Program-made: the position numbers and the translations under genes | Notes under the pieces: generated by a model | Told to the model about the DNA's origin: nothing | Seen by the model: only the letters and a program-made list of their open reading frames with translations | Database searches by the model: none | Shown here: positions 44,296 to 63,987 of the stretch, in pieces | Layout of the letters: each line of letters opens with the position of its first letter | Position numbering within the stretch: position 1 is the first letter of the stretch | Source: Alphaproteobacteria bacterium | GTDB lineage: Bacteria; Pseudomonadota; Alphaproteobacteria; Micavibrionales; Micavibrionaceae | Direction: 5' to 3' | NCBI GenBank assembly: GCA_030426925.1 | Contig: JAUHXT010000002.1 | Location: forward strand, 14,405 to 78,404 | Length of the DNA stretch: 64,000 bases

Positions 44296-44305
44296 AAAAA
44301 TCTGC

Positions 44306-45798: not shown

Positions 45799-45871
45799 AA
45801 TACATAGTCTGGTTTGTGATGCTGAGAGCCCTAAACTAGTGGACTTTTCAAGATTTATCAAACCTTTTTTT

Positions 45872-45895
45872 ATTAAATAAAAACAATTATTTAAT
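45872..45895. promoter_or_regulatory. Perfect 9-bp inverted repeat (candidate operator) in the wza/wzx divergent promoter region
   Basis: ATTAAATAA-aaacaa-TTATTTAAT lies in the AT-rich 185-bp spacer. Confidence 0.35.
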
Positions 45896-45983
45896 GTAAA
45901 ATTCTGTGATATCTTGCTTCGTAATTTTTTGCATTATGGTAATATGTGGCGGGCAACAGTAACGATAATGGCGACGGCAACGT

Positions 45984-48495: not shown

Positions 48496-49625
48496 CGTGC
48501 CAGAACGTCCTTAATTTCTTTCTCTTCACGGTCAACATAACTTTTGATCGTATGCCGTTCCATGATAAACGCCCGTGCATTTTTTGCGATCTTTTTATTG
48601 TCCGGGTCTGCCTGTGCGCTCTTAATGGCTTCAGCCAGAGATTGCGCGCTGACGTCTTTTGACAGGTAGCCCGTTTCACCGTGCTGAATGAGGGCCGTAG
48701 TCCCGGAAATGGGAGTGCCGATACACACCATGTCTGCGGCCATGGCTTCGATCAATACTTTCGGCAGCCCTTCGTGCAGGCTGGGCAGAATGAAGTATTT
48801 ATGGCGCTTCAACAGCTCCGCTATTTCTTCATTGGACAGTACGGGATGATAGTCGATCTTGACGCCTAGCTCCCCGGACAGGCTGAGCATTTCATCTGTC
48901 GTACGGCCTTTGCCGACAACAACCAGTGAAATACCGGCAATCGATGCTGCTCTGACCATTTCAAGGATATTTTTTTGGTTCTCAATCCGGCCGATGTAAA
49001 CGATGCTGTTATCATCGGGTTTTATATCAATATCGGATGCAAAGATATCTGTGTTTACATAGGTGGGGGCGACAAAACATTTCCGCTTATTAAACATCAG
49101 TTTTGTGACATAAGCCTTCGCATCGTTCGTCGTCACGGACGCCATATCAGCAAGGTTAAAGCCGATAAATTCGATCAGTAACGCAATAAACGCCTGAAGG
49201 TATTTTTTGTTTTTATAAAGCCGGCGTGAAAGAATATAGCCGCAACGAAGATAAAACCTGCCCCCGCAAAGCCGGACAAGCCACGCCGTCCAGCACCCGT
49301 TGATTTGGTTGGTTCTTGCGATTTGGACACCGTTCTGAACGGCTTGCTTTATTTTCCGGATATTTAGGGAATGTCTGATCGCTCCAAAAACAGATGTGAC
49401 AGGTGTATCGGGGGCGACGAATTCAAAACGGTTTTTTATGTCATCGTCAATGTTCAGCGCGTTCAGGATGTCTTGGTCATTCTGCCCATAAGTGAAAATG
49501 ACGACGTTGGAAAACAGATCGCGCTTCAGATATTCGATGCAGACCTCCAGTTCACGCCGGACAATCCCTTCGCGCTGCCATTTTTCAAGCGATCCTTTAA
49601 ACGTCAGGACAAGTAGCAGTTTCAT
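48492..49625 (-). CDS. Glycosyltransferase family 4 (GT-B)
   Basis: C-terminal EX7E region LPSLHEGLPKVLIEAMA. Confidence 0.88.
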   Translation of the reverse strand: MKLLLVLTFKGSLEKWQREGIVRRELEVCIEYLKRDLFSNVVIFTYGQNDQDILNALNIDDDIKNRFEFVAPDTPVTSVFGAIRHSLNIRKIKQAVQNGVQIARTNQINGCWTAWLVRLCGGRFYLRCGYILSRRLYKNKKYLQAFIALLIEFIGFNLADMASVTTNDAKAYVTKLMFNKRKCFVAPTYVNTDIFASDIDIKPDDNSIVYIGRIENQKNILEMVRAASIAGISLVVVGKGRTTDEMLSLSGELGVKIDYHPVLSNEEIAELLKRHKYFILPSLHEGLPKVLIEAMAADMVCIGTPISGTTALIQHGETGYLSKDVSAQSLAEAIKSAQADPDNKKIAKNARAFIMERHTIKSYVDREEKEIKDVLAR

Positions 49626-50695
49626 GCCACAACCCCGGTAAGTGTAAGAATTTCTTTCACAGCATCATCCCAGTCATTGAAATCAGACGTATCTACCATA
49701 TACCGCTCAGGCGAAGATAGGGCATCTTTAATTTTTTCCGCCAAGGCTTTGGGGTTATGCGCGTCGAAATATATATGATCGGCAAGATTTAAATCGCGGT
49801 TGGCTTCGATATCGGACAAAATAACGGGAATGCCGTTTTGAATGGCTTCCAAAACGGCGTTTGACATGCCTTCATGGATAGAACAGTTGATATACAGGCT
49901 TTTCTTCTGCAACTCTTCCAAAACCGTATCGCGCTTCTGAACCTCGGCAAATTCAATATTCGCTTCCGGATTTTCGCTTAAATAATGTTTTAGCTCCCCG
50001 GCTTCCCCTGTAAGGTCAGCACCGCCGATAATGGTGATATGCGGCCCGCCTGTACCCAGAAGACTGGAAGCTTCGGCAAGGACAGCGTAGTTTTTTTGCA
50101 TGGTCACACGGCCCACAGCCACGGCTGTGTTCTGCCCGCGTTCAGTTAAAGGGGTATTGTCATTCGCCCGGTCAATACCGTTTCTGACAAGTTGTGTCGG
50201 TATGCCCAGCCCTTCAAGGTGGCGCTTGATATTGGGAGCAACCGCAATCACCGTATCGGCATAACGGCAGAACTTTTCCGTCACACGCATGAAAAGCTTC
50301 ATTGCTGGTCCCCACTTGTCCAGCAGGTAATCAACCGACCCGCTGCGCAAATGGATTTTGGCGCGGCGCCAGAATACGGCCCGCATCAAGGGGATCAGAA
50401 CGGCAAAGTTTGTCCCGAATATGAACACGTGGTCGTAGCGGTGGGTGATGTATTGATACAGGGCATACAGGATATAGAGCGCCTTGTCGGTTTTAAACTT
50501 CCTGGATTTCGGAACCATGATAACCCGCAGGCCGCTTGGCGCATCCTGTCCCGGCGGGTGCAGGGACAACACGTCAATATCCGCATGCGGCAATGAGCGT
50601 GGAATAAAAGCATCCGCGAATTTTTCAATACCCCCTTCATAACCGAAAATGCCGCGCGGCCCGATAACAAGAAGGCGCGGCTTTTTATTTTCCAC
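49622..50695 (-). CDS. Glycosyltransferase family 4 (GT-B)
   Basis: NCSIHEGMSNAVLEAIQNGIP (EX7E). Start proposed at GTG 50695 (VENKKPRLLVIGPRG), overlapping the upstream stop. The track ORF extends 72 more codons inside the upstream gene. Confidence 0.8.
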   Translation of the reverse strand: MENKKPRLLVIGPRGIFGYEGGIEKFADAFIPRSLPHADIDVLSLHPPGQDAPSGLRVIMVPKSRKFKTDKALYILYALYQYITHRYDHVFIFGTNFAVLIPLMRAVFWRRAKIHLRSGSVDYLLDKWGPAMKLFMRVTEKFCRYADTVIAVAPNIKRHLEGLGIPTQLVRNGIDRANDNTPLTERGQNTAVAVGRVTMQKNYAVLAEASSLLGTGGPHITIIGGADLTGEAGELKHYLSENPEANIEFAEVQKRDTVLEELQKKSLYINCSIHEGMSNAVLEAIQNGIPVILSDIEANRDLNLADHIYFDAHNPKALAEKIKDALSSPERYMVDTSDFNDWDDAVKEILTLTGVVA

Positions 50696-51488
50696 GTCCC
50701 AGGCTCCTTCGCAGTTGTCTCGCCCAGTTTGGTGTCGCCAGAAGAACGGCATATTGAAGAAGTGTCGGCCAGAAGGATAAATCACCGTCGCTTTGTGCGC
50801 AGTGTAGCAGACGCGCGGCCATGGAATGGAGAATCTGCCGCTTGCGTTTTGAAACCGTGATGGACGTCGGCAGGTACTGGCGCGTGACCAGAACTTTGGG
50901 AACGCAGCCAAAGCGCAAACCGTTTCTTAAGGCGCGTAAATAAAGCTCGTAATCCTGCGCATAACGGAAAGCCTCGTTATAAAACCCCAGGGGTTCGAGA
51001 CTGGATTTTTTAAAGGATACGGAGGAATGAACGATGAAATTGCGCCGCGCCAGCTTGTTTGCGATGCCAGCATGATCGACCGGGCCATCGATGAGCCATT
51101 CGCGCCCGCTGCTTGGGTCAACCCCGCGCGCATGGGAAAAAACAATATCGGCATCAGGGTGCGCATCATAATACGCGGACAGTTCATCCAGCCTGGACGC
51201 ATCGGGAATATCGTCATCGTCTGTACGTACGATGATGTCGCCCGTCGCAACCGCTAGCCCGCGATTAAGAGAGCGCGTCAGGCCAATATTGGTGTCATTC
51301 TTCAGCACGTTCATACGGGCGTCCTGAAGTATCGTGTCCGCAAGAAAGTCTTCTATCCTGCAATCCGGGTTATCGACAACCAAGATAACTTCACAAGACT
51401 GCGCGCTGCCCAGAAAAATGTCGGCTATTTGTTCAAGGTATTTGGATCCGGTTGTACCGATAAGGATTGAAAATCTGGGCGTACCCAT
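50685..51488 (-). CDS. Glycosyltransferase family 2
   Basis: FSILIGT start, the VDN motif, and the DDDD (DxD) motif TDDDDIPD. Start at ATG 51488. Confidence 0.85.
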   Translation of the reverse strand: MGTPRFSILIGTTGSKYLEQIADIFLGSAQSCEVILVVDNPDCRIEDFLADTILQDARMNVLKNDTNIGLTRSLNRGLAVATGDIIVRTDDDDIPDASRLDELSAYYDAHPDADIVFSHARGVDPSSGREWLIDGPVDHAGIANKLARRNFIVHSSVSFKKSSLEPLGFYNEAFRYAQDYELYLRALRNGLRFGCVPKVLVTRQYLPTSITVSKRKRQILHSMAARLLHCAQSDGDLSFWPTLLQYAVLLATPNWARQLRRSLGRGK

Positions 51489-51489
51489 C

Positions 51490-52647
51490 TTACACCCCCT
51501 TCGCAGGAATGGTTTTAGCTGAAGACGGTTCCTGAGCATCGGTTTCGTCTTTTAGTTCAAGAACGGCGCGCTGGCCGTTCAAACCGATATACCCGAACGC
51601 CCGTATAAGAATACCGGTAAGCGGGCGGCGGAACCGCCATTCTACCAGCTTTGATCCTGTGACCGAGACCGCCATAACGAAAACAAACGCAACAACAATA
51701 GCGGAATTGATCCCGATGTGCGGCGTTAACATTAAAATAATGGAAAGCCCGACGACCTGATGGAACAGGTAAATAGAATAGCTGTATTCCCCGGCCAGAC
51801 GCGTTAAATGGCCTTTGCAGGCAAGTTTGTCGAAGATAAGGAACAAAGTGAAAATAGCGATGAATTCAACAGTATCCATGACTTCGAAGTCCGGGTTCAG
51901 CGAGGCGGCATAAAGGAACTGTGAGCAGACAAGAATGCAGCAAATGCCAAAAACCATATTGATATTGCGCTGGAACAGCAACATTCCCACGGCAAAAAAC
52001 GGCAGGTATTGTGCAATGATCACGCCATGTAACAGTTTATTGTACAAGGTGTATTCGTCGCCACCCAGGGTAATAAGTATAAATAAGTCGGTCATTGCGA
52101 GAATAATAGCAAACCAGGAAAAGGCTTCGATATAGCGTTGTTTAAACAAAAGGGCAAAAATACCGACAAAAAGGTAGAATTTCAATTCGACCAGAATGGA
52201 CCAAAATACACCATCAAGCCAGTTAAAGCCGAAATCTTCGAGAAAGAACGACGTGCCAAGGTAATCCCAGAATGTGCGGTCTGTGACGTCAAATCCTTTC
52301 GGTCCATCCGGTACGACCGGGGTAGGAAAACTAATCAGCCATACCAGAACAAACGTGTTGGCCAGTAAAAACAGAGGCCAGATCCGTGAAATACGTTTGG
52401 CATAAAATTCTCCAAGTGTTTGGCTGTTTTTAATGGTCTTTGCAATCAGATAGCCTGAAATAACAAAGAAGATATAAACCCCGATTTTTCCGGAGAAAAA
52501 CTCCACCAGCGGAGGGGTGTCGGACCCCATATAAACGGCAGGTATTCTGTTTGTATAATGATATATCACGACAAGCAAAACAGCGATCCCGCGCAACTGC
52601 TCGATAAATAGATTCTTCTCTTTTGTTAAGTGATAAGGGTCAGGCAT
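51490..52647 (-). CDS. Acyltransferase family 3 membrane protein (O-acyltransferase)
   Basis: LRGIAVLLVVIYH N-terminal motif and about 10 TM segments. Confidence 0.85.
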   Translation of the reverse strand: MPDPYHLTKEKNLFIEQLRGIAVLLVVIYHYTNRIPAVYMGSDTPPLVEFFSGKIGVYIFFVISGYLIAKTIKNSQTLGEFYAKRISRIWPLFLLANTFVLVWLISFPTPVVPDGPKGFDVTDRTFWDYLGTSFFLEDFGFNWLDGVFWSILVELKFYLFVGIFALLFKQRYIEAFSWFAIILAMTDLFILITLGGDEYTLYNKLLHGVIIAQYLPFFAVGMLLFQRNINMVFGICCILVCSQFLYAASLNPDFEVMDTVEFIAIFTLFLIFDKLACKGHLTRLAGEYSYSIYLFHQVVGLSIILMLTPHIGINSAIVVAFVFVMAVSVTGSKLVEWRFRRPLTGILIRAFGYIGLNGQRAVLELKDETDAQEPSSAKTIPAKGV

Positions 52648-53740
52648 GTTTATCTCTATAGATGTTGGCTGTTTGCCTTTTGTAAGAGTTGGTGGCTTTG
52701 TGCAGTATTCGCATCATGTTTCGTTCCAGCAATAAATAGCTGAACAAAGAGGCGATTATTGAGGCAGTGATAGCAGTGATCACGAAAAGCGAAAGGCTTT
52801 CCAAGCCTATTTTGTTCCATATATAGGCAAACGGAACAAGGGCGAACGGGTGGCACAAATACAGGGAGTACGACGCATCGCCCAGTAGAACCAGAAATTG
52901 ATTAAACTTGTTATGGCCGGACTGCAGCGGTTTCATCATAATCAATGACGCAGAAATCAGTAAGGCCGGAAACCCCCTGGCCAGGGCACGGAAATCGTTT
53001 TCATCTATATATGTCCCGGCGAGTATCCAAAGCCCGACACCCGTCGCAAACAGCGCCAGAGCTACAGGCAGTGGTATTGTACGCACCCGTACATAAACGG
53101 CATACAGCATCATCCCGTACAGGAATTCCAGCATGACCGTGTTTGCAAAGAATGAAAAAATGAAATGATTCTGTTCGAAAAAGTACCCGATAACATTCAA
53201 ACCGATAAGAACGGCAGCGATATAATACTTTCTGGAGCTGTTTGCCAACAGCAACGCACCGGTTGCTATGACGTAAAAGAACATTTCGTAGTTCAGGGTC
53301 CATCCCTGTGCAAGAATAGGGCGCAATATACCGTTTTCGTTCGGCCATGGGATAAACAGGAACGACGTTAAAACATGCGCAGGCGAGAGTTCGCTTTTAT
53401 CTATGAGCCCGGAAAACAGTACAATGGCCAGAACCATCAGAAGGCTATAGAACCAGTATATGGGGACAATGCGTATGATACGCCGTAACAGGAAATTCTT
53501 GGTGTTCTCAACGCTCGGCTCCATCTTGGTGCTGATGAACGTGATGATAAACCCTGAAATGATAAAGAACAGGTCGACACCGGCGCCCCACGGCACCCGC
53601 TCAATCAAACCGTGCATGTCATCGCTGATTAATCCGTTTTTATGGGCCTGTAAAAACACATGCCCGATCAGCACCATGAGAGCGGCATAAAACCGCAAAA
53701 CCTGAACGCTATAGAGTTTTTGGCCGGAAGATGCTGTCAT
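52640..53740 (-). CDS. Acyltransferase family 3 membrane protein (O-acyltransferase), second copy
   Basis: LRFYAALMVLIGH motif; polytopic. Start at ATG 53740, overlapping the wzy stop (ATGA). Confidence 0.85.
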   Translation of the reverse strand: MTASSGQKLYSVQVLRFYAALMVLIGHVFLQAHKNGLISDDMHGLIERVPWGAGVDLFFIISGFIITFISTKMEPSVENTKNFLLRRIIRIVPIYWFYSLLMVLAIVLFSGLIDKSELSPAHVLTSFLFIPWPNENGILRPILAQGWTLNYEMFFYVIATGALLLANSSRKYYIAAVLIGLNVIGYFFEQNHFIFSFFANTVMLEFLYGMMLYAVYVRVRTIPLPVALALFATGVGLWILAGTYIDENDFRALARGFPALLISASLIMMKPLQSGHNKFNQFLVLLGDASYSLYLCHPFALVPFAYIWNKIGLESLSLFVITAITASIIASLFSYLLLERNMMRILHKATNSYKRQTANIYRDKHA

Positions 53741-55095
53741 GTTGCATTCTCCGCGCCATTCAGTGTTTTTAGTCTGTCTTGCCGTTGCTTTGCGCAAGTT
53801 ATCAAAACCGGAACAAAATACCAGATCATGAAATCTCCAAACAGTGGCCCGTCATTATGGAAGAAGATATGAACTATATAAGGGACAAAGCCTATGGCAA
53901 TCAGCATATTTTGTTTGATTTTTAACAGAACATATGTGGCAAGGGGCAGGATAAGGACACCATATTTATGCAGCATATTCAGGTAATAGTTATGAATGGC
54001 GTTGCCTTTTATCGTTTCTGCGTTTTCATAAATAGACATCTGGTCCCAGAATTGCGGAACATACTTGGTGGAATCAAATATCAGCCCGTATCCCATGGGA
54101 TGAGATGTAAAAAGCAGCCATCCGTAATCCCTGAGAGCCGTACGTCCGACGGATGATTTATCCCCGATGCGAAAGGCCCGGATATCAGTGCTTTGCATGT
54201 AGTTCAGGATTGCATCGAGATTGGAATAAATCAGCAACCCGAAAGGCAAAAGTGTAAAGAGGCCGAGCAGGGCAAGGGCAGGGCGCACGGATGTGACGTA
54301 GATGCCGGCGAATATCAGCCCGCCAAGAATAGGAGAGCGGTTGCCCGATATGATGGAAATGACGATTACGAGTGCAAGGGCAATCCATATCGGCCAAGTC
54401 AGAAGTTTTTTGTCCTGTTCCGGCTTAATGGCTTTTTGAAGGACGAAATAGGCCGCAAAGGCCAGGCAGGTTTGCGTCGCCAGATGGACGGGTGAAAAGG
54501 ACAGTCCCATGGCTCGTGCCCGCTCTTGCAGGAAAAAACGGTACATATCATCGTTTTGGATCGCCTGCAGGCTGTCCCGTATATTCCATGCCGCGGATAT
54601 GTCCAGAAATTGAAAAACGGCAAGCCCGGCGGAAAGCCCGACAACGACCATGAAAGCATAGACAAGCTTACGTGCGCCGATTGTATGAAGCAATCCGTAG
54701 CCGGTCAGAACGCCAATCGCGGCCTGTATATGCAGTTCAACGATCTGTCGCAGCACATCGCTGACCGGCAGACTGTTGTATAGGCTGACAATCAGCCCCA
54801 AAAGCGCGGCGTAGGAAATCACCAGCAAGACAGGCAGTGTATGCTTAATGGCATCAACAAACAGTCTTGGGCGCAGGACAAAAACCGACAGGAATAGGAG
54901 AACAACATACAGGGAACGCACGGGCACGCCGCCGGTCAGGAAGCGGACCAGCGCAATTGACAAAAAGAATAGAAGAATAGTGCCGAAGAAATAGGCATGC
55001 GCAGTAAGGGATGAATAAGCCGATGCCGAAAACACATTCACGGGTTCTGGCGCTATACTTTTATCCGCTGTGGCCGTATCGTTCTCGTTCTGCAC
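53737..55095 (-). CDS. O-antigen ligase/polymerase-like (Wzy-type) membrane protein
   Basis: More than 10 TM segments with one larger loop, in an EPS operon context. Confidence 0.75.
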   Translation of the reverse strand: MQNENDTATADKSIAPEPVNVFSASAYSSLTAHAYFFGTILLFFLSIALVRFLTGGVPVRSLYVVLLFLSVFVLRPRLFVDAIKHTLPVLLVISYAALLGLIVSLYNSLPVSDVLRQIVELHIQAAIGVLTGYGLLHTIGARKLVYAFMVVVGLSAGLAVFQFLDISAAWNIRDSLQAIQNDDMYRFFLQERARAMGLSFSPVHLATQTCLAFAAYFVLQKAIKPEQDKKLLTWPIWIALALVIVISIISGNRSPILGGLIFAGIYVTSVRPALALLGLFTLLPFGLLIYSNLDAILNYMQSTDIRAFRIGDKSSVGRTALRDYGWLLFTSHPMGYGLIFDSTKYVPQFWDQMSIYENAETIKGNAIHNYYLNMLHKYGVLILPLATYVLLKIKQNMLIAIGFVPYIVHIFFHNDGPLFGDFMIWYFVPVLITCAKQRQDRLKTLNGAENAT

Positions 55096-55128
55096 GACTG
55101 AAAAACCCTTGCGCTGCTGCTGTAATAG

Positions 55129-56427
55129 CTAGCTGTTTAATTTTGTGCGCTCGAAATTAGCAATAACCGGCACACCAAGCGCTTGAGCAATCTGCTCCGG
55201 TGTGGAAAATCGTTCGTCCATAAATTCAAAGGCAAATCCGATGAACAGGCCGATGGAAAGGCCGGCAAGCAGAAAAGCCAGAAGGATGATGGCATTGGGA
55301 CGGCCGATAGGTTTTGGCGGTGTCAGGGCAGGGTCGATAATTGTAATCCGCGTGATATTCTGGGCATTCAAAAGGTTGTTGACCCGCGCTTCTTCCCCGC
55401 GCTGCTTGTAATACCTGTAGTTCTCCTCATTCAGCCGCAGGTTCTGTTGAAGCTCGTTATACTGTCCGCGATAGGCTTCAAGCTCGGCAATCCGCTGGTT
55501 GATAGAGTCCACTTTCTGCCCCAGTTCAGACTCTTCTCCATTCACAAGGGAGTTGAGGTCCTTTTCCCGCTGATCAAGGTTCTGCCGCGCCACGCCAACG
55601 GCCTGATTTGCTTTTTTCTGGAGCGCGCTTTGGGACCGGTAATTATTTCTGTCCTGTGCGGCCTGCCCACGTGCCTCTGCCAAAGATTGGCGTGCATCGC
55701 TAACGGCATTATAGGCAATGGAGATTAATTCGCTTTTTTGTTTCAACAGTTGCGCCATTTCCTGATCAATATCGGAAATGCCGTGCTCACTTTTGAATTC
55801 ATACAGTTCTTCCCGCGCTTTCTCGACTTTGCCCTTCATGGCACTGGACTGCTCATCCAGAAACTTAGTCTGCGCGGTATCATAAATATTCGCCTGCTTC
55901 GCGATGAAGGCCTCCATCAGCGTGTTGACCAGTTCGGAGGCAATCAGAGGATCTGCATGTGTGTAATAAATGTCGATAATCGTGTTGGTACCGTTGTTAA
56001 TGACATTCAGGTCTTCCAGCACATTGGCCGCTGTGATTTGAATCTTTTCTTCGTCACTCAGTGCTGCCCACTTTTTCTCTTCGGACGGCTTTTGCTGAAC
56101 GTGGATTTTCTCAATCCCCATCTTGGTGACGACTTCACCGAGCAACGCCTGGCTTTTCAGAATGCGGATGTAGGAGTCCAGCACTTCCTTGCGTTCGTAA
56201 TTGGCGCTCTTGTTGGCCCTGCGTTCTCCGGACAGGTTAACGTCCGGCCGGGCCTCCTCGCCGAATTTCACCAGCATGCCGCCCTGTGCTTTATACATAT
56301 CGTTACTGTTGGTCACGATAAACGCGCCCAAACAAGCAAACAGTAAAAAGATGAAGAAGATTTTGTATTTCTGGCGGAAAAATGCGTGAAGAATACCGCG
56401 TATATTATATTCAAAGCCCATATGCAT
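55129..56427 (-). CDS. Polysaccharide chain-length determinant (Wzz/GumC-like PCP)
   Basis: An N-terminal TM (IFFIFLLFACLGAFIV), a long coiled-coil periplasmic region, and a C-terminal TM with P-rich motif LTPPKPIGRPN. Confidence 0.8.
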   Translation of the reverse strand: MHMGFEYNIRGILHAFFRQKYKIFFIFLLFACLGAFIVTNSNDMYKAQGGMLVKFGEEARPDVNLSGERRANKSANYERKEVLDSYIRILKSQALLGEVVTKMGIEKIHVQQKPSEEKKWAALSDEEKIQITAANVLEDLNVINNGTNTIIDIYYTHADPLIASELVNTLMEAFIAKQANIYDTAQTKFLDEQSSAMKGKVEKAREELYEFKSEHGISDIDQEMAQLLKQKSELISIAYNAVSDARQSLAEARGQAAQDRNNYRSQSALQKKANQAVGVARQNLDQREKDLNSLVNGEESELGQKVDSINQRIAELEAYRGQYNELQQNLRLNEENYRYYKQRGEEARVNNLLNAQNITRITIIDPALTPPKPIGRPNAIILLAFLLAGLSIGLFIGFAFEFMDERFSTPEQIAQALGVPVIANFERTKLNS

Positions 56428-56522
56428 ACCCCGCTGCTGTAGCGGTTGCACTATAAAAGTCGGAATAGTTGAAATCAACGATTATTTTTACAGAATTCCG
56501 GATATTTTTAGAGCCTGATTAC

Positions 56523-56564: not shown

Positions 56565-56639
56565 GGGCGGTTAGCTCAGCGGGAGAGCACTACGTTGACA
56601 TCGTAGGGGTCACTGGTTCGATCCCAGTACCGCCCACCA
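56565..56639 (+). tRNA. tRNA-Val (GAC anticodon)
   Basis: GGGCGGTTAGCTCAGCGGGAGAGCACTACGTTGACATCGTAGGGGTCACTGGTTCGATCCCAGTACCGCCCACCA folds by hand into a 75-nt cloverleaf. Anticodon loop UUGACAU, encoded CCA. Confidence 0.93.
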
Positions 56640-57091
56640 TTTTCCATAATATAAAAAACATGTTTATGCGACCGTTCCGGAGACGGAGCGGTTCGTTTGC
56701 CGTGTACAGGATTATAAATCTGCTTCCTTGATGAAATACTCTGGCAGGTGGGCATAATATAGATGGTATAAAATACATGTTCATGTCCGATTTTTATTGA
56801 CGAAAATCAAAAAATATTTAAGATGATATTTAAATATAAAAATAAAATTTAACAGGGAAATTAAATATGCAAGCGCACTTTACTTGACTGCGGCAAGCCG
56901 CATTTATCCTCACATAGAAAATTATTGACGGGCGATTACTTGTCCGGCCGATAGGTATTTTTTGTGGCTTCTTAAGCTTATTTGTTTAAGGGCAGGGGGA
57001 ATTCATAACAAAAATAAACCGTGCAACAGACCGGCTTTAAGCAGCTTTTCTGAACGGTAAAACACATAAAAACACACACAGGGAGTTAACT

Positions 57092-58852
57092 ATGACCAAA
57101 GGAGCAAACCGCTTTGGCGACCTACAGGCACGCCTCGCACAAGCAGACACAGGAACAGAAACAGATCGCGGCAAAAACCGCCTGCGCGAACGCTTTCGTT
57201 CAACGGAAGAGCAGGACAACACGCGAACGCAAACCGCCGTTGAGCAATCCGAGTTCTATAAAACACTGATTGATCCGGATATCGAACCCGAAAAAAAGGT
57301 CGAATTGCTGGCCGAAATGATGGTGTTTGATGAAGAAGATCTGGAAAAAAATCCGGAACAAATGAAAGAGATGAAGGCAGTTGTTGCACAACTCCTGAGT
57401 GATTTCAAACAATACAGCGTTGATGTATTGGAACTGATCCGCGATAACCCGCTTTCCGAACTTGGTACGGATATTAAAAGTGTTTTTGAACGGTATCACC
57501 AGGTCGTATCGGAAAGAGAAGGCCTTGACAAAAAGCTGGAACTGATTGATGAGGCACTGAGCCGCCACGGTGGACCGGAAGGTCTTGTCAAAGCACTTCA
57601 CAGTGCGAAAAACAACGCCGGTGAGCAGGAAGCATTCAAGGAAGAGTTGGATGAAGCACGGCAGGAAGTCGAGCGTATGGGTGGAGACCTGCGCGGACTG
57701 GACGGCGCAGTACGTGTCCTGACTGCCAGCATTAGCGAAGCAGAAAGCGATTCATTCCTTTTCTTTAAATCAGGAAAGAAACGTGAAATTGCAGAGCAAA
57801 AAAAACAGCTTGTCGATAAGAAGATCGACCGTGAAAAGCTGGCTGCCGACCTTGAGGAAAAGAAAGAGCAGTTAAGCGCGAAAGCCGGAGAGTATGAAGC
57901 GCTTCTAAAGGATGATGATTTCATGCTTCACCAGAGGATCCTGGAAATTTTGGATGTGGGATCCCCGGAGTTCAAGGAGCAGATTGCACGCCTTGCGCAG
58001 TTGACCATTGATTATGTCGGTGACACGGAAACTATTCTGAGTGACAGCCGTGATCAGATCGCGGCCTTGCTGGAAAGAAGTCAGCGCGTCCTGAACATGA
58101 TTCAGAACACCGGTGAACATGTGAGCGTCCTTCTGGCCGCGCAGAACAAGGCGCAGGGCATCAACACCGATAAGCTGACCGGCATAGAAGCACAAGCGCA
58201 GCAAGCGTCCGGACTGGAAGGAATGAAGCTGGCCAAAAAGCGCACGGCCCTGAACCGCCACATAACGGATACATCCGGCGCGGTTCGTTCATCCGCCTTG
58301 ATCGGTCAGGAGCTTAGTAAGGTCGAAACGTCGCAGGTCGCTTTTGTCGGCCGCCTGCACGAAGGTCTTTCCGATGCGGAAGAACAGCAGCTCATTTCTA
58401 CCGGCAGTGCGTCTATGACAGGGGTCGCAACGCTAAGCCGCGTGGAATCTCTGGCTGCCCAAATTCCCGGCCTGATAGCCAAAGGGCAGTATGCACAGGA
58501 CAGTGAATATGCTCTGGGAGAGTTGAACAAGGAATTCGAACGGGCACTGGCCGCGAAAATTTCCGGAAACGACTCTTTGGGTACATTCACGGACGTTCTG
58601 AAAGACGTACGCGAAGCCATGCGTGACAGGACCGACCTGGATATTGAAATTGCCAGACAAAGAAAAGGCCTGATTGACGGAATGATTGAGGAGACAGAAA
58701 AACTGGCTCGTATCAATCAGGAAGCACAGTCCATTGAAGGTGCTGTGAACCAGGAACTGTATGGCAAAAAACCTGATGCTGCTCAGGCAGGTCCAAGGGG
58801 TGGCGGAGGAGGCGCTGTGCCCGATGGCGCTGCTTTAAGAATGGTCATTTAG
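57092..58852 (+). CDS. Large coiled-coil protein of unknown function (tentatively TelA-like) with Gly-rich C-terminal tail
   Basis: 586 aa, E/K/Q/L-rich with heptad-like runs throughout. CAGGGAG SD. The tail reads GPRGGGGGAVPDGAALRMVI. Confidence 0.85.
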   Translation: MTKGANRFGDLQARLAQADTGTETDRGKNRLRERFRSTEEQDNTRTQTAVEQSEFYKTLIDPDIEPEKKVELLAEMMVFDEEDLEKNPEQMKEMKAVVAQLLSDFKQYSVDVLELIRDNPLSELGTDIKSVFERYHQVVSEREGLDKKLELIDEALSRHGGPEGLVKALHSAKNNAGEQEAFKEELDEARQEVERMGGDLRGLDGAVRVLTASISEAESDSFLFFKSGKKREIAEQKKQLVDKKIDREKLAADLEEKKEQLSAKAGEYEALLKDDDFMLHQRILEILDVGSPEFKEQIARLAQLTIDYVGDTETILSDSRDQIAALLERSQRVLNMIQNTGEHVSVLLAAQNKAQGINTDKLTGIEAQAQQASGLEGMKLAKKRTALNRHITDTSGAVRSSALIGQELSKVETSQVAFVGRLHEGLSDAEEQQLISTGSASMTGVATLSRVESLAAQIPGLIAKGQYAQDSEYALGELNKEFERALAAKISGNDSLGTFTDVLKDVREAMRDRTDLDIEIARQRKGLIDGMIEETEKLARINQEAQSIEGAVNQELYGKKPDAAQAGPRGGGGGAVPDGAALRMVI

Positions 58853-58865
58853 TGACCTGTGTGGG

Positions 58866-58898
58866 GTGGAGCCGTGCCAATCGCGGTTGCGGCTCCAC
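58866..58898 (+). other. Intercistronic 9-bp GC-rich hairpin
   Basis: GTGGAGCCG-15 nt loop-CGGCTCCAC, 14 nt after the stop of gene 1 and not followed by a clean U-run. Confidence 0.45.
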
Positions 58899-58937
58899 TG
58901 CACGAAATAAAAAATAAAGTTTTCAGGGAGAATAATA

Positions 58938-61301
58938 ATGTCTAAGGCACGTTCAAAGAAAAACGGCACGGTTTTGTACGATCTGGAAGATCACGTAGAA
59001 AATAATGATGCAGAGTTCAAATTGGTTGGAGACGGTGATATTGAAAAAATATCCAGTATCCTGGGGCAAAGCCGTAGCCCGAACCTTTTATATATAGGTA
59101 AATCCGGGCTGGGAAAGACAGCCAACCTGTACGGGATTGCCCAAAGGAAGAAAGTAACGATTGATGGAACGCTGGGGCCGGATGAAACGCGGCTGCCACT
59201 TCATATGATCGACAGGCGTTACCTGGTGCTGGATACCAACCGCTTGTTCAGCCGGAACGACCCGGAGCGCATCCAGCAAAAATTGCAGGAAATATTCGCG
59301 GAACTGGATAAGCCTGGCCGCCATGTATTGATTATCGAAGACATGAACGACTGGCTGCGCGGTATCGAAGATAACCAGTGTCAGGGCATGATCCCGTCCT
59401 TTATCAACCAGTTGAAGCGCGGATCGTTCCAGTTGATTGCCATGGTCCGCGACGAACCAGGCAAAAACAATCTGGCCCGTATACTGGAAACACATTCCGA
59501 GATGACGGAACTGTTCACGGTTCTTGAAAAGAAACCACCAAGCAAGGACGAGGTGCTGGAGATTATGCGCCGGAGCAAGGGAGCGCTGGAAGCCCACCAC
59601 GACGGCCTGCATATCACCGACGAAGCCAATGAAGAAGTCGTCAACCTGACATTTCTTTACCCGAATTTACGCCAGTACATGCGTGAACAGCCCGCACGGT
59701 CGTTGCGGATGCGCGACCAGATCGCCAGCACCTTTGTATCCAGAAGGCAGTCCAGACCGCAGGAACTTATGGAACTGGAACGTGAACTGGAAGGCATAAC
59801 GGAAAAACTGGAAGCCGGAGATGAAACACCGGAATTACTGGCCGCAAAAGCAACCGTTGAAGCACAGATCGATCAGGTGCAGGAAGCATGGGACAAGAGA
59901 ACGCACGAACTGGGGCAGGCTTACCTGAAAAAACGTAATCTGGAGCGCGACCTTCAGGAACTGGAAGCCGATATAGAGGACGAAAAAGAAAAAATAGGCG
60001 AGTCTTTTGAAAGTGAACATGGCCGCACGATGACCGATAAGGACATGGCGAACCATAAAACTCCGAACCTGAAAGAACTGGAAACATATGCCCGCCAGGC
60101 GCGCAAGGAACTCGCTGATGCCGATGAGGCCGCACAGGCCATCAAAAGCGATCACAACACCCAGTTAACATTGGACGTCAATGACATTCGCGCCGGTTTC
60201 AGTGAGATGACAGGAATTCCGGTCAAGGACCTGAACGCGGACGAAGCCACAAAAGTCATGGGACTGGACAAGCGGTTAAAAGAGAAAATCTACGGACAGG
60301 ACGATGTCGTCGATACGGTCTCTGGCGCTATCCGCAGGGCCAAGGCCGGATTGAAAGATCCGCAGAAACCGATTGGGTCGTTTATGATGCTGGGGTCTTC
60401 CGGTGTCGGGAAAAGTTATATGGCGGAATGTCTGGCTGACGACCTGTATGGCGATAAGGAAGCGTTGACCGTATTCGATATGAGCGAATTCATGGAACGC
60501 CAGAACCTGTCCCGCTTGATCGGAAGTACGCCGGGTCTTGTCGGTTTTGGTGAAGGCGGAAAATTGACCAACGCCGTTCGGGTGCGCCCGTACCAGATTA
60601 TCTTGCTGGACGAGATTGAAAAGGCGCATCCCGACGTGTTCAAAATCCTGCTTCAGGTGTTGGACAAAGGCCGTTTGAGCGATGAAGTGGGTACCGTCGA
60701 TTTTCGCAACACGGTCATCATGATGACCACCAATCTGGGACAGGAACTGTCATTTGATCCGAACCGTACATCCAGAAACAGCCGCGACGATATTATTTCG
60801 GCAGTACGCCGGATATTCCCGCAGGAACTGATCAACCGGGTTGACGATTTCATGCTGTTCAAATCATTAAGCCCCGAAAACGTGCAGAAAATTGTCAGAC
60901 GGGAACTAAAGGGCCTGAACGGCATGCTGGCCGGAAGGAACATGGAAGCCGTTCTGCCGGACGAAGATGTCGCCAGTTTGGTCACCGACAAATACCGTGA
61001 AGAAGAGGGCGCGCGCCAGATCCTTAAATTCATCAATAACAATATGACGGATCAGGTTGCGGATATTGTTCTTAGCCATTCGCATGACAAGAGCGGCGGC
61101 ACGATTATGGTTCGTTACAACCCGGATGACGACCGTTTCGATGTCAGGTTTTCAAAGGGCGGTGGCGGCGTCATCAAGCCGTTTGAGATATCGCCGGATG
61201 AAATCCGCCCAGTTGGAGGGGGCGGGGCAGGTGGCATACCCGGAGTGCCAGGGGGCGCAGCAAGGTCGGCGTTTGCCGCATTTGCACCGTCCTTCCACTA
61301 A
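58938..61301 (+). CDS. ClpB/Hsp104-like double AAA+ ATPase lacking the Clp N-domain, with degenerate NBD1
   Basis: NBD1 has Walker A GKSGLGKT and VLIIEDMND in place of ILFIDELH. A coiled-coil middle region follows. NBD2 is canonical (GSSGVGKS, IILLDEIEKAHPDVF, DFRNTVIMMTTN, GAR). Gly-rich tail. Confidence 0.9.
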   Translation: MSKARSKKNGTVLYDLEDHVENNDAEFKLVGDGDIEKISSILGQSRSPNLLYIGKSGLGKTANLYGIAQRKKVTIDGTLGPDETRLPLHMIDRRYLVLDTNRLFSRNDPERIQQKLQEIFAELDKPGRHVLIIEDMNDWLRGIEDNQCQGMIPSFINQLKRGSFQLIAMVRDEPGKNNLARILETHSEMTELFTVLEKKPPSKDEVLEIMRRSKGALEAHHDGLHITDEANEEVVNLTFLYPNLRQYMREQPARSLRMRDQIASTFVSRRQSRPQELMELERELEGITEKLEAGDETPELLAAKATVEAQIDQVQEAWDKRTHELGQAYLKKRNLERDLQELEADIEDEKEKIGESFESEHGRTMTDKDMANHKTPNLKELETYARQARKELADADEAAQAIKSDHNTQLTLDVNDIRAGFSEMTGIPVKDLNADEATKVMGLDKRLKEKIYGQDDVVDTVSGAIRRAKAGLKDPQKPIGSFMMLGSSGVGKSYMAECLADDLYGDKEALTVFDMSEFMERQNLSRLIGSTPGLVGFGEGGKLTNAVRVRPYQIILLDEIEKAHPDVFKILLQVLDKGRLSDEVGTVDFRNTVIMMTTNLGQELSFDPNRTSRNSRDDIISAVRRIFPQELINRVDDFMLFKSLSPENVQKIVRRELKGLNGMLAGRNMEAVLPDEDVASLVTDKYREEEGARQILKFINNNMTDQVADIVLSHSHDKSGGTIMVRYNPDDDRFDVRFSKGGGGVIKPFEISPDEIRPVGGGGAGGIPGVPGGAARSAFAAFAPSFH

Positions 61302-61328
61302 CAAAAATAAAAAAACAGGGAGAAAAAA

Positions 61329-62201
61329 ATGTCCAAAGACCATCAGGACGAAGCATTAAGAAAGGCGAGGGAAACGATCCGCGATCTGGATCGCGACCGA
61401 CAGCAGGAAAAAAGCCGCACAGATTTTGAAGAAGAAGCGGCGAAACCAACTGGCGGATTTGCCGAACAAATCAGGGAAACAGCCAAGGCAGCCCGAACGA
61501 TAAACAAGGCCGTCGGTATTGCGTCAAAAGCATACGAAAAACTGAAGAAATACACCGCTCCGGTATTCTGGATTGCAGGCAAGCTTGTGCGCGGGGCGGG
61601 AACAGCCTTTAAGCACGCCGCCTATATGAAAAACCGGGACGGGTCATTCAAGCTGGATGAAGACGGTGACATGATTTTTTCTGGGAACAAACTGGCTTGT
61701 ACATTTGGCGTGGCGACTTGTATTGGACTTTCGGCATATACCGGTATGAATTACGCATATTATAACGGTACGCATTTCGAAGAACTCGTATACACGACCG
61801 GAAAACAGGAAATTGTCAGCGGTGAGTTGTATCATGTAACGGGCTGTACCTCTTTGCCGTGCTCGACAGACAGCGACAACGGAAAATATTACCAGATAAC
61901 GCAAAGCTGGTTCGCACCGCGCCTTTTGTATCCGGAAGAGACAGTTTACGCCAATATTCCGCAGCAAATCGCCGCCTGCCATTTCGAAGGGTACGGGATT
62001 TATTTTAAAAGCCTGAAGCCGATTATGAGATGGGCGGAGTGGTACCAGAACATTGAAAGCGCATCCTGCCGTACGCTGACAGAAGCGGAAATCCAGCAAA
62101 GTATTCATGATGGCGGCGCTCCGGAAGTTCCGCTCACAAGGCCGGCGCCCACGGAGACTGCTCCGGCTCCGGCACAAGCGCCGGCACCAGCCTTACAATA
62201 A
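61329..62201 (+). CDS. Single-pass membrane protein of unknown function with Cys-containing extracytoplasmic domain and Pro/Ala tail
   Basis: A charged N-terminal ~110 aa, a TM segment LACTFGVATCIGLSAYTGM, a ~140-aa domain with four Cys after the TM segment, and the tail PAPTETAPAPAQAPAPALQ. CAGGGAG SD. Confidence 0.8.
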   Translation: MSKDHQDEALRKARETIRDLDRDRQQEKSRTDFEEEAAKPTGGFAEQIRETAKAARTINKAVGIASKAYEKLKKYTAPVFWIAGKLVRGAGTAFKHAAYMKNRDGSFKLDEDGDMIFSGNKLACTFGVATCIGLSAYTGMNYAYYNGTHFEELVYTTGKQEIVSGELYHVTGCTSLPCSTDSDNGKYYQITQSWFAPRLLYPEETVYANIPQQIAACHFEGYGIYFKSLKPIMRWAEWYQNIESASCRTLTEAEIQQSIHDGGAPEVPLTRPAPTETAPAPAQAPAPALQ

Positions 62202-62219
62202 AAACAGGGAGACAATCAG

Positions 62220-62660
62220 ATGGGAAAAAAACCGGAAGAAAAAGACATCATCGACCAGCTTGCCGATGATATCGCGGATGGCGTCGCAGAAATGAGAGCT
62301 GATTTTAAAGATGCCAGCGACGCCGTACGAAAGGGAATAAAAGGCGGGATTAAAAAGGCCGGGGAGGCGTATGATGAAGCAGGAAAAGTGATCGGCAAGG
62401 ATCGCCTTTTAGGGGCCAGTATCGGGGCTTATAAAGGATGGGCGATTGGAAGCTTTGGCGGCCCTGTAGGCATGATCAAAGGAGTGGTAATCGGTACGGT
62501 CTTTGGGTATGTCGCCGGACCGAAAATAAAGGATTGGTGGAGTGAAGACGACCGCCCTCAGGATAACGATCCGGATGCGCCGCCACCGGAAACAAAAAAC
62601 CCGGGCGCAACTGATCAGCAGGAACGCAAACCACCCGGTATGCATAACAAAAATGAATGA
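62220..62660 (+). CDS. Glycine-zipper small membrane protein
   Basis: The segment GASIGAYKGWAIGSFGGPVGMIKGVVIGTVFGYVAG has a GxxxG-rich pattern. Charged termini. CAGGGAG SD. Confidence 0.75.
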   Translation: MGKKPEEKDIIDQLADDIADGVAEMRADFKDASDAVRKGIKGGIKKAGEAYDEAGKVIGKDRLLGASIGAYKGWAIGSFGGPVGMIKGVVIGTVFGYVAGPKIKDWWSEDDRPQDNDPDAPPPETKNPGATDQQERKPPGMHNKNE

Positions 62661-62673
62661 GGATAATGCCGGA

Positions 62674-63987
62674 TTAATATTCCAGAGCGAGTGTTAAACC
62701 AACCGCATGGGAATCATAGGACGCAAACGCCCGGTTTGAATTACGTTTTCTGTAATCGTATTCAAATTTCAGTTTGGCATTTTGATTCAACAAATAACGG
62801 CTGTTCAGACCCAGGTCGTAAATATCATCGTCACGATCAAGAGGGTTCAGCGCCTGACTGGTTTCAAAGTCGGCGTTTGTGTATGAGGCATCAGCCCCTA
62901 CAGACAGCTTTTCATTGTAGATATGCGTAAAGTCAGCGCCAACGCGCGTATTCACGATACCGGACACGCCGTTTGTTGTGCTGTCCTTGATCCAGCGGTC
63001 AAAGCGCAGGCCCAAAATATCATCCGGTGTGATGTCCCATTCCCCGTCGAAATAGAAATCCAGCTCTTCGATATCGCTAAGCTGCATGGCGTCATAGTCC
63101 TGATCCATATAACCGACATAGGTGTCAAAGCGGAAGTCTTCACCCGGAACGTCTCTGGAGACACCGGCTGCGACATTATATCCATCAGAATCCAGACGGT
63201 ATGTGCTGCTGGAATCTACGCGGTGATCGTAATCTCGCTCATTGGCTGCTGCACGAATGTAAAACACATAAGGTTGAACAAATTCATAACCCAGCTTGCC
63301 GATGACCTCGCGTTGATCATGGTCGCGGTCATCCTGGTTACTGAACGTCGAGTCACGTCTGAAAACAGAATCGTAATCATAAGAATTCCAATACCCGGCA
63401 ATTTCGTAATGGGTCAGGTTCCGTTGCCCGATAAATGAACTTTCAAGGCGGTACAAATCATATTCTACTGGCTCTGAGTTAATGGACCCCGCATCGTCTT
63501 CGAAAGAACCGATGCCGACATGCCCGTGTTTGTACAAAGCGCCGACACGTAATGCATCAGTTGTTGAAAAATCGTACCGGCCATCTGCTTCGACAACCCA
63601 GTCAGCGTAGTTGTTACGCTCATCAGCAAGGTAATAACCGAATTCCGGCGCAAAACGAAAACCGAACTCATGCTTCGTCAGGTTACTCTCAAGATTGATC
63701 TCCGGTTCGAAACTGAAAACGAAGTCGCTTTCTTCACCGGACGTGGCCTTGTAAATGTTATCCAGATACTTTGCGCCAAAGTCGCCTTCTATATCCAGCG
63801 TCATAAGGGAATACAGCCAGTTGTCAGAAAGATTGAAGGGAGCCTTCTTTTCCTCCGACGGTGTGCCGAGCACAGGGACATCGGATGAAGCGGAAGCTCT
63901 CTCCTCAGCTGCAAGCGCAACGGTACTGGTGCCGCACATCAAAAGCAATGTGCCGAAGTAATTGGAAAATCGAAAAGTGTGTTTCAT
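62674..63987 (-). CDS. Outer-membrane beta-barrel protein (OmpL/BBP2-like)
   Basis: Signal peptide ending VALAAEE, alternating aromatic/polar beta-strand pattern rich in Y/D/N, and C-terminal LTLALEY. Confidence 0.8.
   Translation of the reverse strand: MKHTFRFSNYFGTLLLMCGTSTVALAAEERASASSDVPVLGTPSEEKKAPFNLSDNWLYSLMTLDIEGDFGAKYLDNIYKATSGEESDFVFSFEPEINLESNLTKHEFGFRFAPEFGYYLADERNNYADWVVEADGRYDFSTTDALRVGALYKHGHVGIGSFEDDAGSINSEPVEYDLYRLESSFIGQRNLTHYEIAGYWNSYDYDSVFRRDSTFSNQDDRDHDQREVIGKLGYEFVQPYVFYIRAAANERDYDHRVDSSSTYRLDSDGYNVAAGVSRDVPGEDFRFDTYVGYMDQDYDAMQLSDIEELDFYFDGEWDITPDDILGLRFDRWIKDSTTNGVSGIVNTRVGADFTHIYNEKLSVGADASYTNADFETSQALNPLDRDDDIYDLGLNSRYLLNQNAKLKFEYDYRKRNSNRAFASYDSHAVGLTLALEY

Follow-up and report, generated by a model that had tools for sequence, protein, structure and literature searches.

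What a Clp/Hsp100 ATPase without the substrate-binding N-domain might be doing in an operon with a long helical protein and two membrane proteins is the question raised by a locus in the genome of an alphaproteobacterium of the Micavibrionaceae (GenBank assembly GCA_030426925.1, contig JAUHXT010000002.1). The window analysed here is the whole stretch from position 14,405 to 78,404 of the forward strand of that contig, 64,000 nt in all, and a first-pass annotation made from its sequence had singled out four same-strand genes, separated by 85, 27 and 18 nt, that it could place in no known system. The open reading frame (ORF) listing bears out this arrangement:

57092–58852, + strand: gene 1 (g1), ATG start, 586 aa
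58938–61301, + strand: gene 2 (g2), ATG start, 787 aa
61329–62201, + strand: gene 3 (g3), ATG start, 290 aa
62220–62660, + strand: gene 4 (g4), ATG start, 146 aa

An identical Shine-Dalgarno sequence, CAGGGAG, lies 6–8 nt 5′ of each of the four ATG codons, which supports genuine, co-translated genes. The first three genes form a conserved triad that is carried by bacteria and by phages, and the ATPase at its centre appears from its sequence to belong to an Hsp100 subfamily of its own. The module may be a membrane-tethered AAA+ remodeller dedicated to assemblies of the g1 protein, a reading that we favour tentatively and at a little under even confidence.

That the three genes belong together emerges from an all-against-all ORF comparison of 14 non-redundant loci, with g1–g3 at fixed offsets. 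The order g1–g2–g3 was kept at every one of them (g1 in 14/14 loci, g2 in 14/14 and g3 in the 13/13 whose contigs are long enough) between unrelated flanks, so that the conservation of gene neighbourhood for which the first-pass annotation had proposed to look is indeed present. Other recurrent ORF 'families' in the 14 loci were antisense shadow ORFs or were lineage-specific. Because a homologue of g4 is confined to the Micavibrio locus, the conserved unit comprises three genes; the four-gene operon is real, but its core is g1–g2–g3 alone, and g4 is accessory to it. Where g2 has relatives at 58%, 49%, 46%, 41% and 33% identity, a protein of ~550–580 aa is encoded directly upstream and one of ~220–290 aa directly downstream. 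The former are homologous to g1 and collinear with it (26–39% identity, with 42 invariant columns), and the latter share the C-terminal Cys-motif domain of g3. Seven loci have g3 overlapping the end of g2, with its start 4 nt ahead of the g2 stop codon, which suggests translational coupling.

Carriers of the triad range from Alpha- and Gammaproteobacteria and Entotheonella to a T4-like phage contig and the jumbo phage Atu_ph07; by best hits only, the window's own closest relatives are Micavibrio-like Alphaproteobacteria. When 185,579 species genomes were scanned with the g1 profile, ten further loci came to light (in Parvularculaceae, Marinicaulis, three Hyphococcus, Micavibrio, Caulobacterales and Entotheonella), and relatives of g3 led to the triad in Vibrio sp. 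Of7-15 and in Motilimonas cestriensis, the latter with a remote g1 (hhalign probability 96.8%, E 2.9e-10). Complete genomes with the triad include Hyphococcus NZ_OZ253945.1 and NZ_OZ245810.1 and Motilimonas cestriensis CP170335.1. A remote member of the g1 family, at ~18% identity, is also followed by a Clp protein that lacks the N-domain. The flanks of the triad are unrelated across loci and include exopolysaccharide (EPS) genes, UbiD, amidase/TauD, Band_7, glyoxalase/HAD, polyphosphate kinase and acetyltransferases, and the triad is apparently a horizontally mobile module. Type VI secretion (T6SS) genes are absent from the window and from all 14 non-redundant loci, and the earlier observation that the operon is accompanied by no T6SS, ClpP/ClpS or DnaK/GrpE genes extends from the window to all related loci. 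In Entotheonella (L002/L003), a HigB/HTH_3 toxin–antitoxin pair, an AAA-ATPase_like/PDDEXK_9 protein and three Band_7 (SPFH) genes lie near the triad; this is the sole neighbourhood with the flavour of a conflict system or a membrane microdomain.

The description of g2 as a two-ring Clp/Hsp100 protein without an N-domain agrees with its matches in Pfam and NCBIfam. Pfam recognises AAA_2 (PF07724, 3.4e-52), ClpB_D2-small (PF10431, 3.8e-10), AAA_lid_9 (PF17871) and AAA in this protein, and Clp_N (PF02861) gives no match. The parts of the first (D1) and second (D2) ring lie as follows:

59028–59537, + strand: large D1 domain, a putative pseudo-ATPase (aa ~31–200; motif census and ClpC alignment)
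59541–59834, + strand: D1 lid, AAA_lid_9 (aa 202–299; Pfam PF17871)
60366–60848, + strand: D2 AAA_2 domain, the predicted motor (aa 477–637; Pfam PF07724 and motif census)
60867–61112, + strand: small D2 domain, ClpB_D2-small (aa 644–725; Pfam PF10431)

The best curated match of g2 is ClpB TIGR03346 (E 2.5e-109), at a score of 366.9 bits that amounts to ~30% of the equivalog cutoff of 1232.1. Scores against PRK10865 (298.6 bits, cutoff 1417), ClpV/TssH TIGR03345 (333.2 bits, cutoff 884.95), ClpA TIGR02639 (322 bits, cutoff 993) and ClpG/ClpK NF033607/NF033606 (278.6 and 265.5 bits, cutoff 1900, with the D2 half alone aligning) are similarly low, and g2 lies under all NCBIfam equivalog cutoffs. 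Given that the alignment to the ClpB model is continuous over model positions 178–848, g2 begins at D1 and includes an M-domain of ClpB length; this coiled-coil domain starts inside the D1 lid and runs to ~aa 430, and has ~93 residues where ClpC has ~15. At the position of the ClpP-docking-loop insertion g2 is gapped in the alignment to ClpC, and no [LIVM]G[FL] motif of the ClpP loop (IGF/LGF) occurs in aa 597–640. The C-terminus is a Gly-rich tail (aa 726–787) conserved in the close clade only. In a search of 5.8 billion protein clusters, the relatives of g2 form ~75 clusters at 1750 to ~350 bits, all without Clp_N, and after a sharp score break the canonical N-domain ClpC/ClpB come next at <= 325 bits. 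The ATPase would thus represent a sharply delimited and distinct subfamily of Hsp100 proteins, and not the housekeeping clpB.

A motif census of ~68 full-length subfamily members against canonical ClpC/ClpB locates the peculiarity of these proteins in D1. Walker A is intact in g2 (GKSGLGKT), and GxxGxGKT is kept in most of the subfamily. Walker B reads hhhhED in all members instead of the canonical hhhhDE (IIED in g2), sensor-1 has changed from GATT to xMVR, and the two arginine fingers (ALERRFQ, RR) are replaced by E in 68/68 and by L in 63/68 members (EL in g2), while the canonical pore loop KYRGEFE has given way to a Tyr-less segment of the NDPE type. A median of 48 residues precedes the D1 Walker A in the subfamily, as against ~207 in the canonical proteins. 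The D2 ring of the subfamily is canonical in Walker A, Walker B (LLDEIE), sensor-1 (TTN), the NRVD Arg and sensor-2 (GARQ), and g2 itself has GSSGVGKS, ILLDEIE, TTN and the NRVD Arg at the corresponding positions. By established AAA+ knowledge, these residue states would make D1 a pseudo-ATPase that at most binds nucleotide and D2 the motor of the protein. In the branch of the Atu_ph07-type ATPases (gp492 in L043; L044, 3649–4131) the D1 Walker A Lys has been lost as well, being replaced by Cys (GPGGVGCS), and the degeneration of D1 seems to have proceeded stepwise, from ED with an intact Walker A to loss of the whole nucleotide site. The D2 pore loop is GYVG in canonical Clp, GYAG in most relatives of g2 and GLVG in the window's clade; in g2 itself (60516–60560, aa 527–541) a Leu stands at the conserved Tyr position, an aliphatic substrate-gripping residue that is unusual for an Hsp100.

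The protein encoded ahead of the ATPase is, on the searches made with it, the founding member of an orphan family. Among 1.84 billion representative proteins, searched exhaustively with HMMER, g1 has only 60 relatives, nearly all of them 550–600 aa long and matched over their full length. No match to g1 was found in Pfam, NCBIfam, PHROG or PADLOC (E <= 0.01) or in the Protein Data Bank (PDB), no Pfam family recurs among 41 members of the family, and profile searches against PDB sequences gave coiled-coil noise only. TelA (PF05816), which had been put forward for this gene, has no match at E <= 1 and none in the 41 members. The g1 profile likewise found no relatives in IMG/VR; by tblastn, the phage-type gene 1 has no match in INPHARED phages and the g1 of the window none in PLSDB plasmids.

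As for its structure, g1 had been described as almost entirely coiled-coil, and this fits the AlphaFold2 (AF2) model, which is all-helical with helices of up to 80–90 residues (for example 292–371 and 375–465), at a predicted local distance difference test (pLDDT) of 66.6 and a predicted template-modelling score (pTM) of 0.40. The protein is free of Cys and of hydrophobic segments (maximum Kyte–Doolittle hydropathy, KD19, 1.06), and is predicted to be a long all-alpha protein of the cytoplasm. Its N-terminus (~aa 1–47) is basic and Ser-rich and is modelled at low confidence. Foldseek found nothing significant for the model in the PDB (best E 0.014, all TM <= 0.21), and the matches below significance are to designed helical repeats, to the coiled coils of SMC/MukB/JetC and to AhlB/SmhB.

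The protein encoded behind the ATPase had been taken for a single-pass membrane protein with a Cys-containing outer domain, and both hydropathy and the AF2 model (pLDDT 83.6; N-terminal helices, one transmembrane helix and a beta domain) agree with that description:

aa 3–98: predicted cytoplasmic helices of g3 (AF2 model)
61674–61748 (aa ~116–140): predicted transmembrane helix (hydropathy and AF2 model)
61773–62078 (aa 149–250): predicted periplasmic beta domain with 4 conserved Cys
C-terminal: Pro-rich tail, clade-specific

The distribution of cysteines in the family is telling. Exactly 4 follow the transmembrane helix in 43/44 relatives and 5 in the remaining one, and none precedes it in 40/44; C173, C217 and C247 are invariant, together with G172, N184 and G223. 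From this pattern we infer that g3 is oriented N-in/C-out and carries two periplasmic disulfides. No Pfam, NCBIfam, PHROG, PADLOC (E <= 0.01) or PDB match was found for g3, Pfam being silent for all 44 members, and DUF1523 (PF07509), another earlier suggestion, has no match at E <= 1 and none in the 44 family members; like g1, g3 would therefore represent an orphan family. In the PDB, Foldseek detects a weak resemblance to the OB-fold (E >= 0.011). A relationship to the T4 holin T was considered and set aside: the g3 homologue of the phage contig L004 has no PHROG match, and no holin appears among the Foldseek matches of g3. The best structural relatives of the beta domain (61773–62078) are uncharacterized proteins of 104–121 aa from giant eukaryotic viruses, namely Fadolivirus and Pyramimonas orientalis virus (target-normalised TM 0.65–0.79, E 3.5e-5 to 5e-3).

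The fourth gene is a clade-specific accessory that encodes a small membrane protein outside the conserved core. It consists of a charged N-terminal helix, a Gly-rich hydrophobic stretch (aa 73–103, 62436–62528) and a Pro-rich tail, and its only homologue is in the Micavibrio locus L013 (E 3.4e-13), the other loci being without it. To the eye the Gly-rich stretch fits the glycine zipper that had been proposed, but the matches to the Gly-zipper Pfam families (PF13488 and relatives; E 0.014, 15.7 bits, cutoff 25) stay below threshold. The Gly-rich tails of g1 and g2 and the Pro-rich tails of g3 and g4, to which the first-pass annotation had drawn attention, are present at the C-termini but do not define the system: they are conserved in the window's close clade only and are missing in distant homologues. 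Relatives of g1 at >= 39% identity share a consensus C-terminal end (...GG..GAP.GA.LRMV), and the tail of the Micavibrio g4 is also Pro-rich. The tails may be a lineage-specific addition, for example for contacts with g4 or the cell wall.

Phages carry the triad as well. One clade of the ATPase, at ~46% identity, is encoded on contig L004, together with a homing endonuclease and a major head protein of T4 type (phrog_138, 4e-69), and another triad is found on the phage-like contig L005 with genes for a phage-type RNA ligase, TROVE, S21, HSP20 and DsrC. The latter contig (Logan SRR20820736, 46 kb) also encodes an RF-1-domain protein and has unusually many host-like auxiliary genes. Two independent searches converge on the cultured jumbo phage Atu_ph07: gp492 is the top match when a phage-type ATPase is compared by tblastn with deposited phages (33% identity), and a 237-aa protein of the same phage is the top match of the g3 model in a Foldseek search of BFVD (E 1.8e-11). 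Directly 5′ of gp492 lies gp493 (543 aa), which matches the g1 profile (hhalign 94%, E 1.2e-7), and three small genes 3′ of it lies gp488 (237 aa), which matches the g3 profile (hhalign 98.4%, E 7.4e-15), so that gp493–gp492–gp488 is a homologous triad in which three small genes separate the ATPase from the g3 homologue. Too divergent for tblastn, gp493 was found via the ATPase and g3 Foldseek searches and then by hhalign. The deposited annotation calls gp493 and gp488 hypothetical and gp492 a ClpB/ATP-dependent protease; the paper on the phage names gp492 'ClpB', assumes that it clears aggregates and does not mention the partners (PMC6102473), and a comparative survey of jumbo phages covers ClpA, ClpX, ClpP and ClpS only, again without mention of the partners. 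In 25 IMG/VR contigs that have an ordinary Clp (N-domain, D1 'FIDE') and served as a negative control, neither g1 nor g3 was present, and neither of these proteins has a PHROG family.

The first-pass annotation had also asked whether the genes would match a named system. None was found in Pfam, NCBIfam, PHROGs, PADLOC, the PDB sequence search, Foldseek or the literature; full-text searches of the literature turned up no ClpB-like system with such partners and, on atypical ClpB paralogues, nothing of relevance but ClpI, which is different. Comparison with the known Hsp100 proteins nevertheless helps to place the ATPase. Like ClpB/Hsp104 (TIGR03346; PDB 1qvr, 6oax), g2 is a double AAA+ protein with AAA_lid_9, AAA_2 and ClpB_D2-small, an M-domain of ClpB length, no ClpP loop and canonical D2 motifs. 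Unlike ClpB/Hsp104, it has no N-domain; its D1 has the ED Walker B and lacks the Arg fingers, the canonical sensor-1 and the pore-loop Tyr; the D2 pore loop of its subfamily is GYAG or GLVG, not GYVG; and it is always found between two orphan partner genes and is phage-borne. The N-domain and the ClpP-docking IGF/LGF loop of ClpA/ClpC/ClpE are both missing from it, and ClpG/ClpK, to which the D2 half alone aligns, score well below their cutoff. The ClpI proteins of the Actinomycetota, a third class of double-ring Clp unfoldases delimited by bioinformatics, are a precedent for a phylogenetically distinct and previously unrecognised Hsp100 class that came to light by sequence analysis, yet their ATPase modules are intact, they have an N-terminal domain, an M-domain of ClpC length and in some cases an LGF ClpP loop, they are restricted to Actinomycetota, and no obligate partner genes have been described for them (PMC10149685). 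In PADLOC, the Dodola protein DolB and PDC-M37B match g2 over ~430–711 (E 7e-25 and 5e-28), a region that is the generic D2 module only; these are single-ring proteins of ~375–520 aa, and the cassette has no equivalent of DolA or PDC-M37A.

The functional analogy that we favour is with ClpV/TssH, a ClpB-derived ATPase dedicated to the disassembly of one helical, polymeric client at the membrane, although ClpV differs from g2 in its specialised VipB-binding N-domain, its two active rings and its place in T6SS clusters. A similar logic is found in Vps4/ESCRT-III, in the bacterial PspA/Vipp1 and in NSF/SNARE, where an AAA+ protein recycles a helical-hairpin or coiled-coil assembly on membranes. 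In NSF, as apparently in g2, one ring is catalytic and the other is a structural ring that binds nucleotide. Unlike the Vps4/katanin and NSF/Cdc48 clades, however, g2 belongs to the Hsp100 clade, and it is D1, not D2, that is the apparently dead ring.

There is reason to think, on the basis of this anatomy, that the triad encodes a machine, driven by ATP, that works on a helical scaffold at the membrane, much as the first-pass annotation had suggested; this is the best fit to the features of the three proteins. In such a machine g2 would be a hexameric unfoldase with D1 as a structural ring and D2 as the motor that threads substrate. Having lost the N-domain, never having had the ClpP-docking loop and having kept a full M-domain, it would offer its M-domain and its top face to g1 in place of DnaK or aggregates. 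The g1 protein would be its dedicated client or scaffold and would form assemblies, which g2 would disassemble or reset, probably starting from the flexible N-terminal tail of g1, while g3 would serve as an anchor in the inner membrane and couple the machine to the envelope through its disulfide-bonded periplasmic beta domain. The cycle would follow the logic of Vps4/ESCRT-III, NSF/SNARE and ClpV/sheath, in which the assembly does its work at the membrane and the ATPase recycles it. The triad is scattered over bacteria that are not related to one another, its genomic context varies, and lytic phages carry it too; the most likely site of its action is the inner membrane or envelope of the (host) cell, at times of stress or infection.

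It is conceivable, though we consider it unlikely, that the triad is a membrane-remodelling or repair system common to bacteria and lytic phages that has so far gone unrecognised. The g1 protein would then be a long-helical polymer that assembles on the inner membrane at the bitopic receptor g3 and is recycled by g2. If this were true, prokaryotes and viruses would have in the triad their own analogue of Vps4/ESCRT-III or NSF/SNARE, evolved independently from the Hsp100 lineage, and phages would control the integrity of the host envelope with it during infection.

Several observations weigh against a membrane-tethered remodeller of g1 assemblies. The g1 model is only moderately confident, and no significant similarity of g1 to ESCRT-III/PspA, to SNAREs or to known remodelling scaffolds was found in Pfam, by PDB profile search or by Foldseek; ESCRT-III, PspA and Vipp1 do not appear among the top 50 Foldseek PDB matches of a model whose pTM is 0.40. 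The arginine fingers of D1 are required for oligomerisation and activity in ClpB (PMC4239642), and a D1 without them suggests that the ring may assemble differently or only with its partners. The Leu in the D2 pore loop of the window's clade might weaken threading, and the transmembrane helix of g3 is weakly hydrophobic in that same clade (KD 1.1–1.4) and strongly so elsewhere. Finally, the neighbourhoods of the triad hold no pointer to a specific physiological process.

Part of the evidence might be expected of a conflict system, which would act as anti-phage defence in bacteria and as superinfection exclusion or an anti-competitor device in phages. The g3 protein would sense an event at the envelope, such as phage adsorption or DNA injection, and the ATPase would unfold or release g1 as an effector, for instance one that attacks the membrane in abortive infection. 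The patchy and seemingly horizontally transferred distribution across Alpha- and Gammaproteobacteria, Entotheonella and phages between unrelated flanks would suit this explanation, as would the tRNA gene next to the cassette and its apparent insertion in an EPS locus, the HigB/HTH toxin–antitoxin pair and PD-(D/E)XK ATPase near the triad in Entotheonella, and the homing endonuclease adjoining a phage copy. The weak Foldseek matches of g1 to AhlB and SmhB, two alpha-pore-forming toxins (E ~0.1, TM <= 0.21), point the same way, but they are not significant, and g1 has no hydrophobic or amphipathic segment for membrane insertion (maximum KD19 1.06). The PADLOC candidates PDC-M37B and DolB have their D2 module in common with g2, but the matches of the ATPase are confined to this generic AAA_2 region, and g1 and g3 have no match in PADLOC at all. 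Since, moreover, the surrounding genes have for the most part metabolic or housekeeping roles and do not form defence islands, the carriers include phages of strictly lytic type (T4-like and jumbo), and the GC of the operon equals that of the genome, we regard a conflict function as a minority possibility. A specialised stress disaggregase or chaperone, comparable to the stand-alone ClpG/ClpK or to ClpB–DnaK, seems rather improbable to us. Under it, g1 would stand in for the N-domain and DnaK as a co-chaperone or adaptor, and g3 would localise the rescue of aggregated or mis-inserted membrane proteins. The clear ClpB ancestry of g2, its M-domain, the absence of a ClpP loop and the HSP20 gene in the same region of phage contig L005 are all in keeping with such a role. 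In disaggregation by ClpB/Hsp104 both rings and the D1 pore loop contribute, however, and the catalytic residues, arginine fingers and pore-loop Tyr of D1 are missing in every member of this subfamily; ClpG/ClpK reach scores of 279 and 266 bits against a cutoff of 1900, a membrane partner is obligate, and the strict linkage to two orphan proteins, together with the rarity of the family, argues for a dedicated client rather than general proteostasis. The authors of the Atu_ph07 paper did assume aggregate clearance for gp492 (PMC6102473), and phages often carry chaperone genes (PMC7824862).

The phage copies invite the further thought that the triad is a chaperone of phage morphogenesis, for example for membrane-proximal assembly of the head or portal, and that the bacterial copies are prophage remnants. 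The copy on L004 stands beside the major capsid gene, and AAA+ chaperones have been proposed as aids to virion assembly in jumbo phages (PMC7824862). The bacterial loci, by contrast, have no phage structural genes or integrases within +/-7–10 kb, at least 10 species-level bacterial genomes hold the cassette in intact and conserved form, its GC is genomic, and g1 and g3 have no PHROG family; we consider this explanation very improbable. Least of all does the evidence favour a housekeeping clpB with unrelated neighbours, an outcome that the first-pass annotation had asked to be checked and that now seems practically negligible. Although ClpB TIGR03346 is the best curated match of g2 (E 2.5e-109), its 367 bits remain far below the cutoff of 1232, Clp_N is absent and D1 is degenerate, and the protein falls by a sharp score break into a distinct subfamily that is strictly syntenic with g1 and g3 and has copies in phages.

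The surroundings of the cassette in the window are those of an EPS locus. The following features border it:

42757–44295: WbaP-type priming transferase of the EPS locus
44306–53797, - strand: several ORFs of the EPS locus
53737–55095: multi-pass membrane ORF, O-antigen-ligase/polymerase-like by eye only
55129–56478: EpsF-like chain-length determinant, upstream of tRNA-Val and the cassette
56565–56639, + strand: tRNA-Val, anticodon GAC (ARAGORN), directly upstream of the cassette
56640–57091, + strand: AT-rich spacer of 452 nt, the probable promoter region
62674–63987: EpsL-like outer-membrane protein, on the strand opposite to the cassette, ending 13 nt from the g4 stop

The cassette and tRNA-Val thus interrupt this locus (42757–56478 and 62674–63987), and its EpsF-like and EpsL-like neighbours do not recur beside the triad in other loci. 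A tRNA-Val followed by an extremely AT-rich spacer had been reported here, and both are present. The GC of the spacer is 36.3%, as against 51.6% across the window, and the label is fair for its core, because the 17% GC of the 100 nt at ~56753–56852 is lower than in every other sampled 100-nt window of the 64 kb. The GC of the operon, at 0.51–0.52, equals the 0.516 of the window and carries no compositional mark of recent transfer. Sigma-70-like sequences occur at 56731–56758 and 56797–56824, as matches to the consensus only, and scans of promoters and terminators gave counts not clearly higher than the shuffled expectation. In a search for att sites, the 3′ end of the tRNA had no downstream copy, and no integrase is present. 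A 21-nt direct repeat, 86% identical (56998–57018, GGAATTCATAACAAAAATAAA; 62637–62657, GGTATGCATAACAAAAATGAA), flanks the operon nearly exactly, and may be a remnant of insertion or a chance match; no other flanking repeat was found. Elsewhere in the window, an ORF of 743 aa (39897–42128, - strand) has a serralysin/RTX-type C-terminal region and the type I secretion target domain TIGR03661 (above cutoff), and its product is probably secreted by a type I system; the largest ORF, of 1106 aa (9078–12398, + strand), has no NCBIfam match at E <= 1e-5.

Taken as a whole, the three-protein module is apparently undescribed, its ATPase apparently a new variant within the Hsp100 family and g1 and g3 its orphan partners. 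Known Hsp100 classes serve either as general chaperones and protease partners (ClpB, ClpA/C/X) or a single client (ClpV), and the present one, if borne out, adds another class dedicated to a client. It would be unusual in having D1 fixed as a pseudo-ATPase throughout the family and in its two obligate partner families without known relatives, and its spread is unusual too, taking in free-living bacteria, predatory and symbiotic lineages, T4-like phages and a jumbo phage. The triad corrects the annotations 'ClpB', 'ATP-dependent protease' and 'AAA family ATPase' that its ATPases now carry and gives a genomic context to two orphan families. Among its carriers, Atu_ph07, which infects Agrobacterium tumefaciens C58, and the Vibrio and Motilimonas strains are in culture, and these are natural starting points for work on a module that may put an Hsp100 motor to use at the envelope in bacteria and phages alike.

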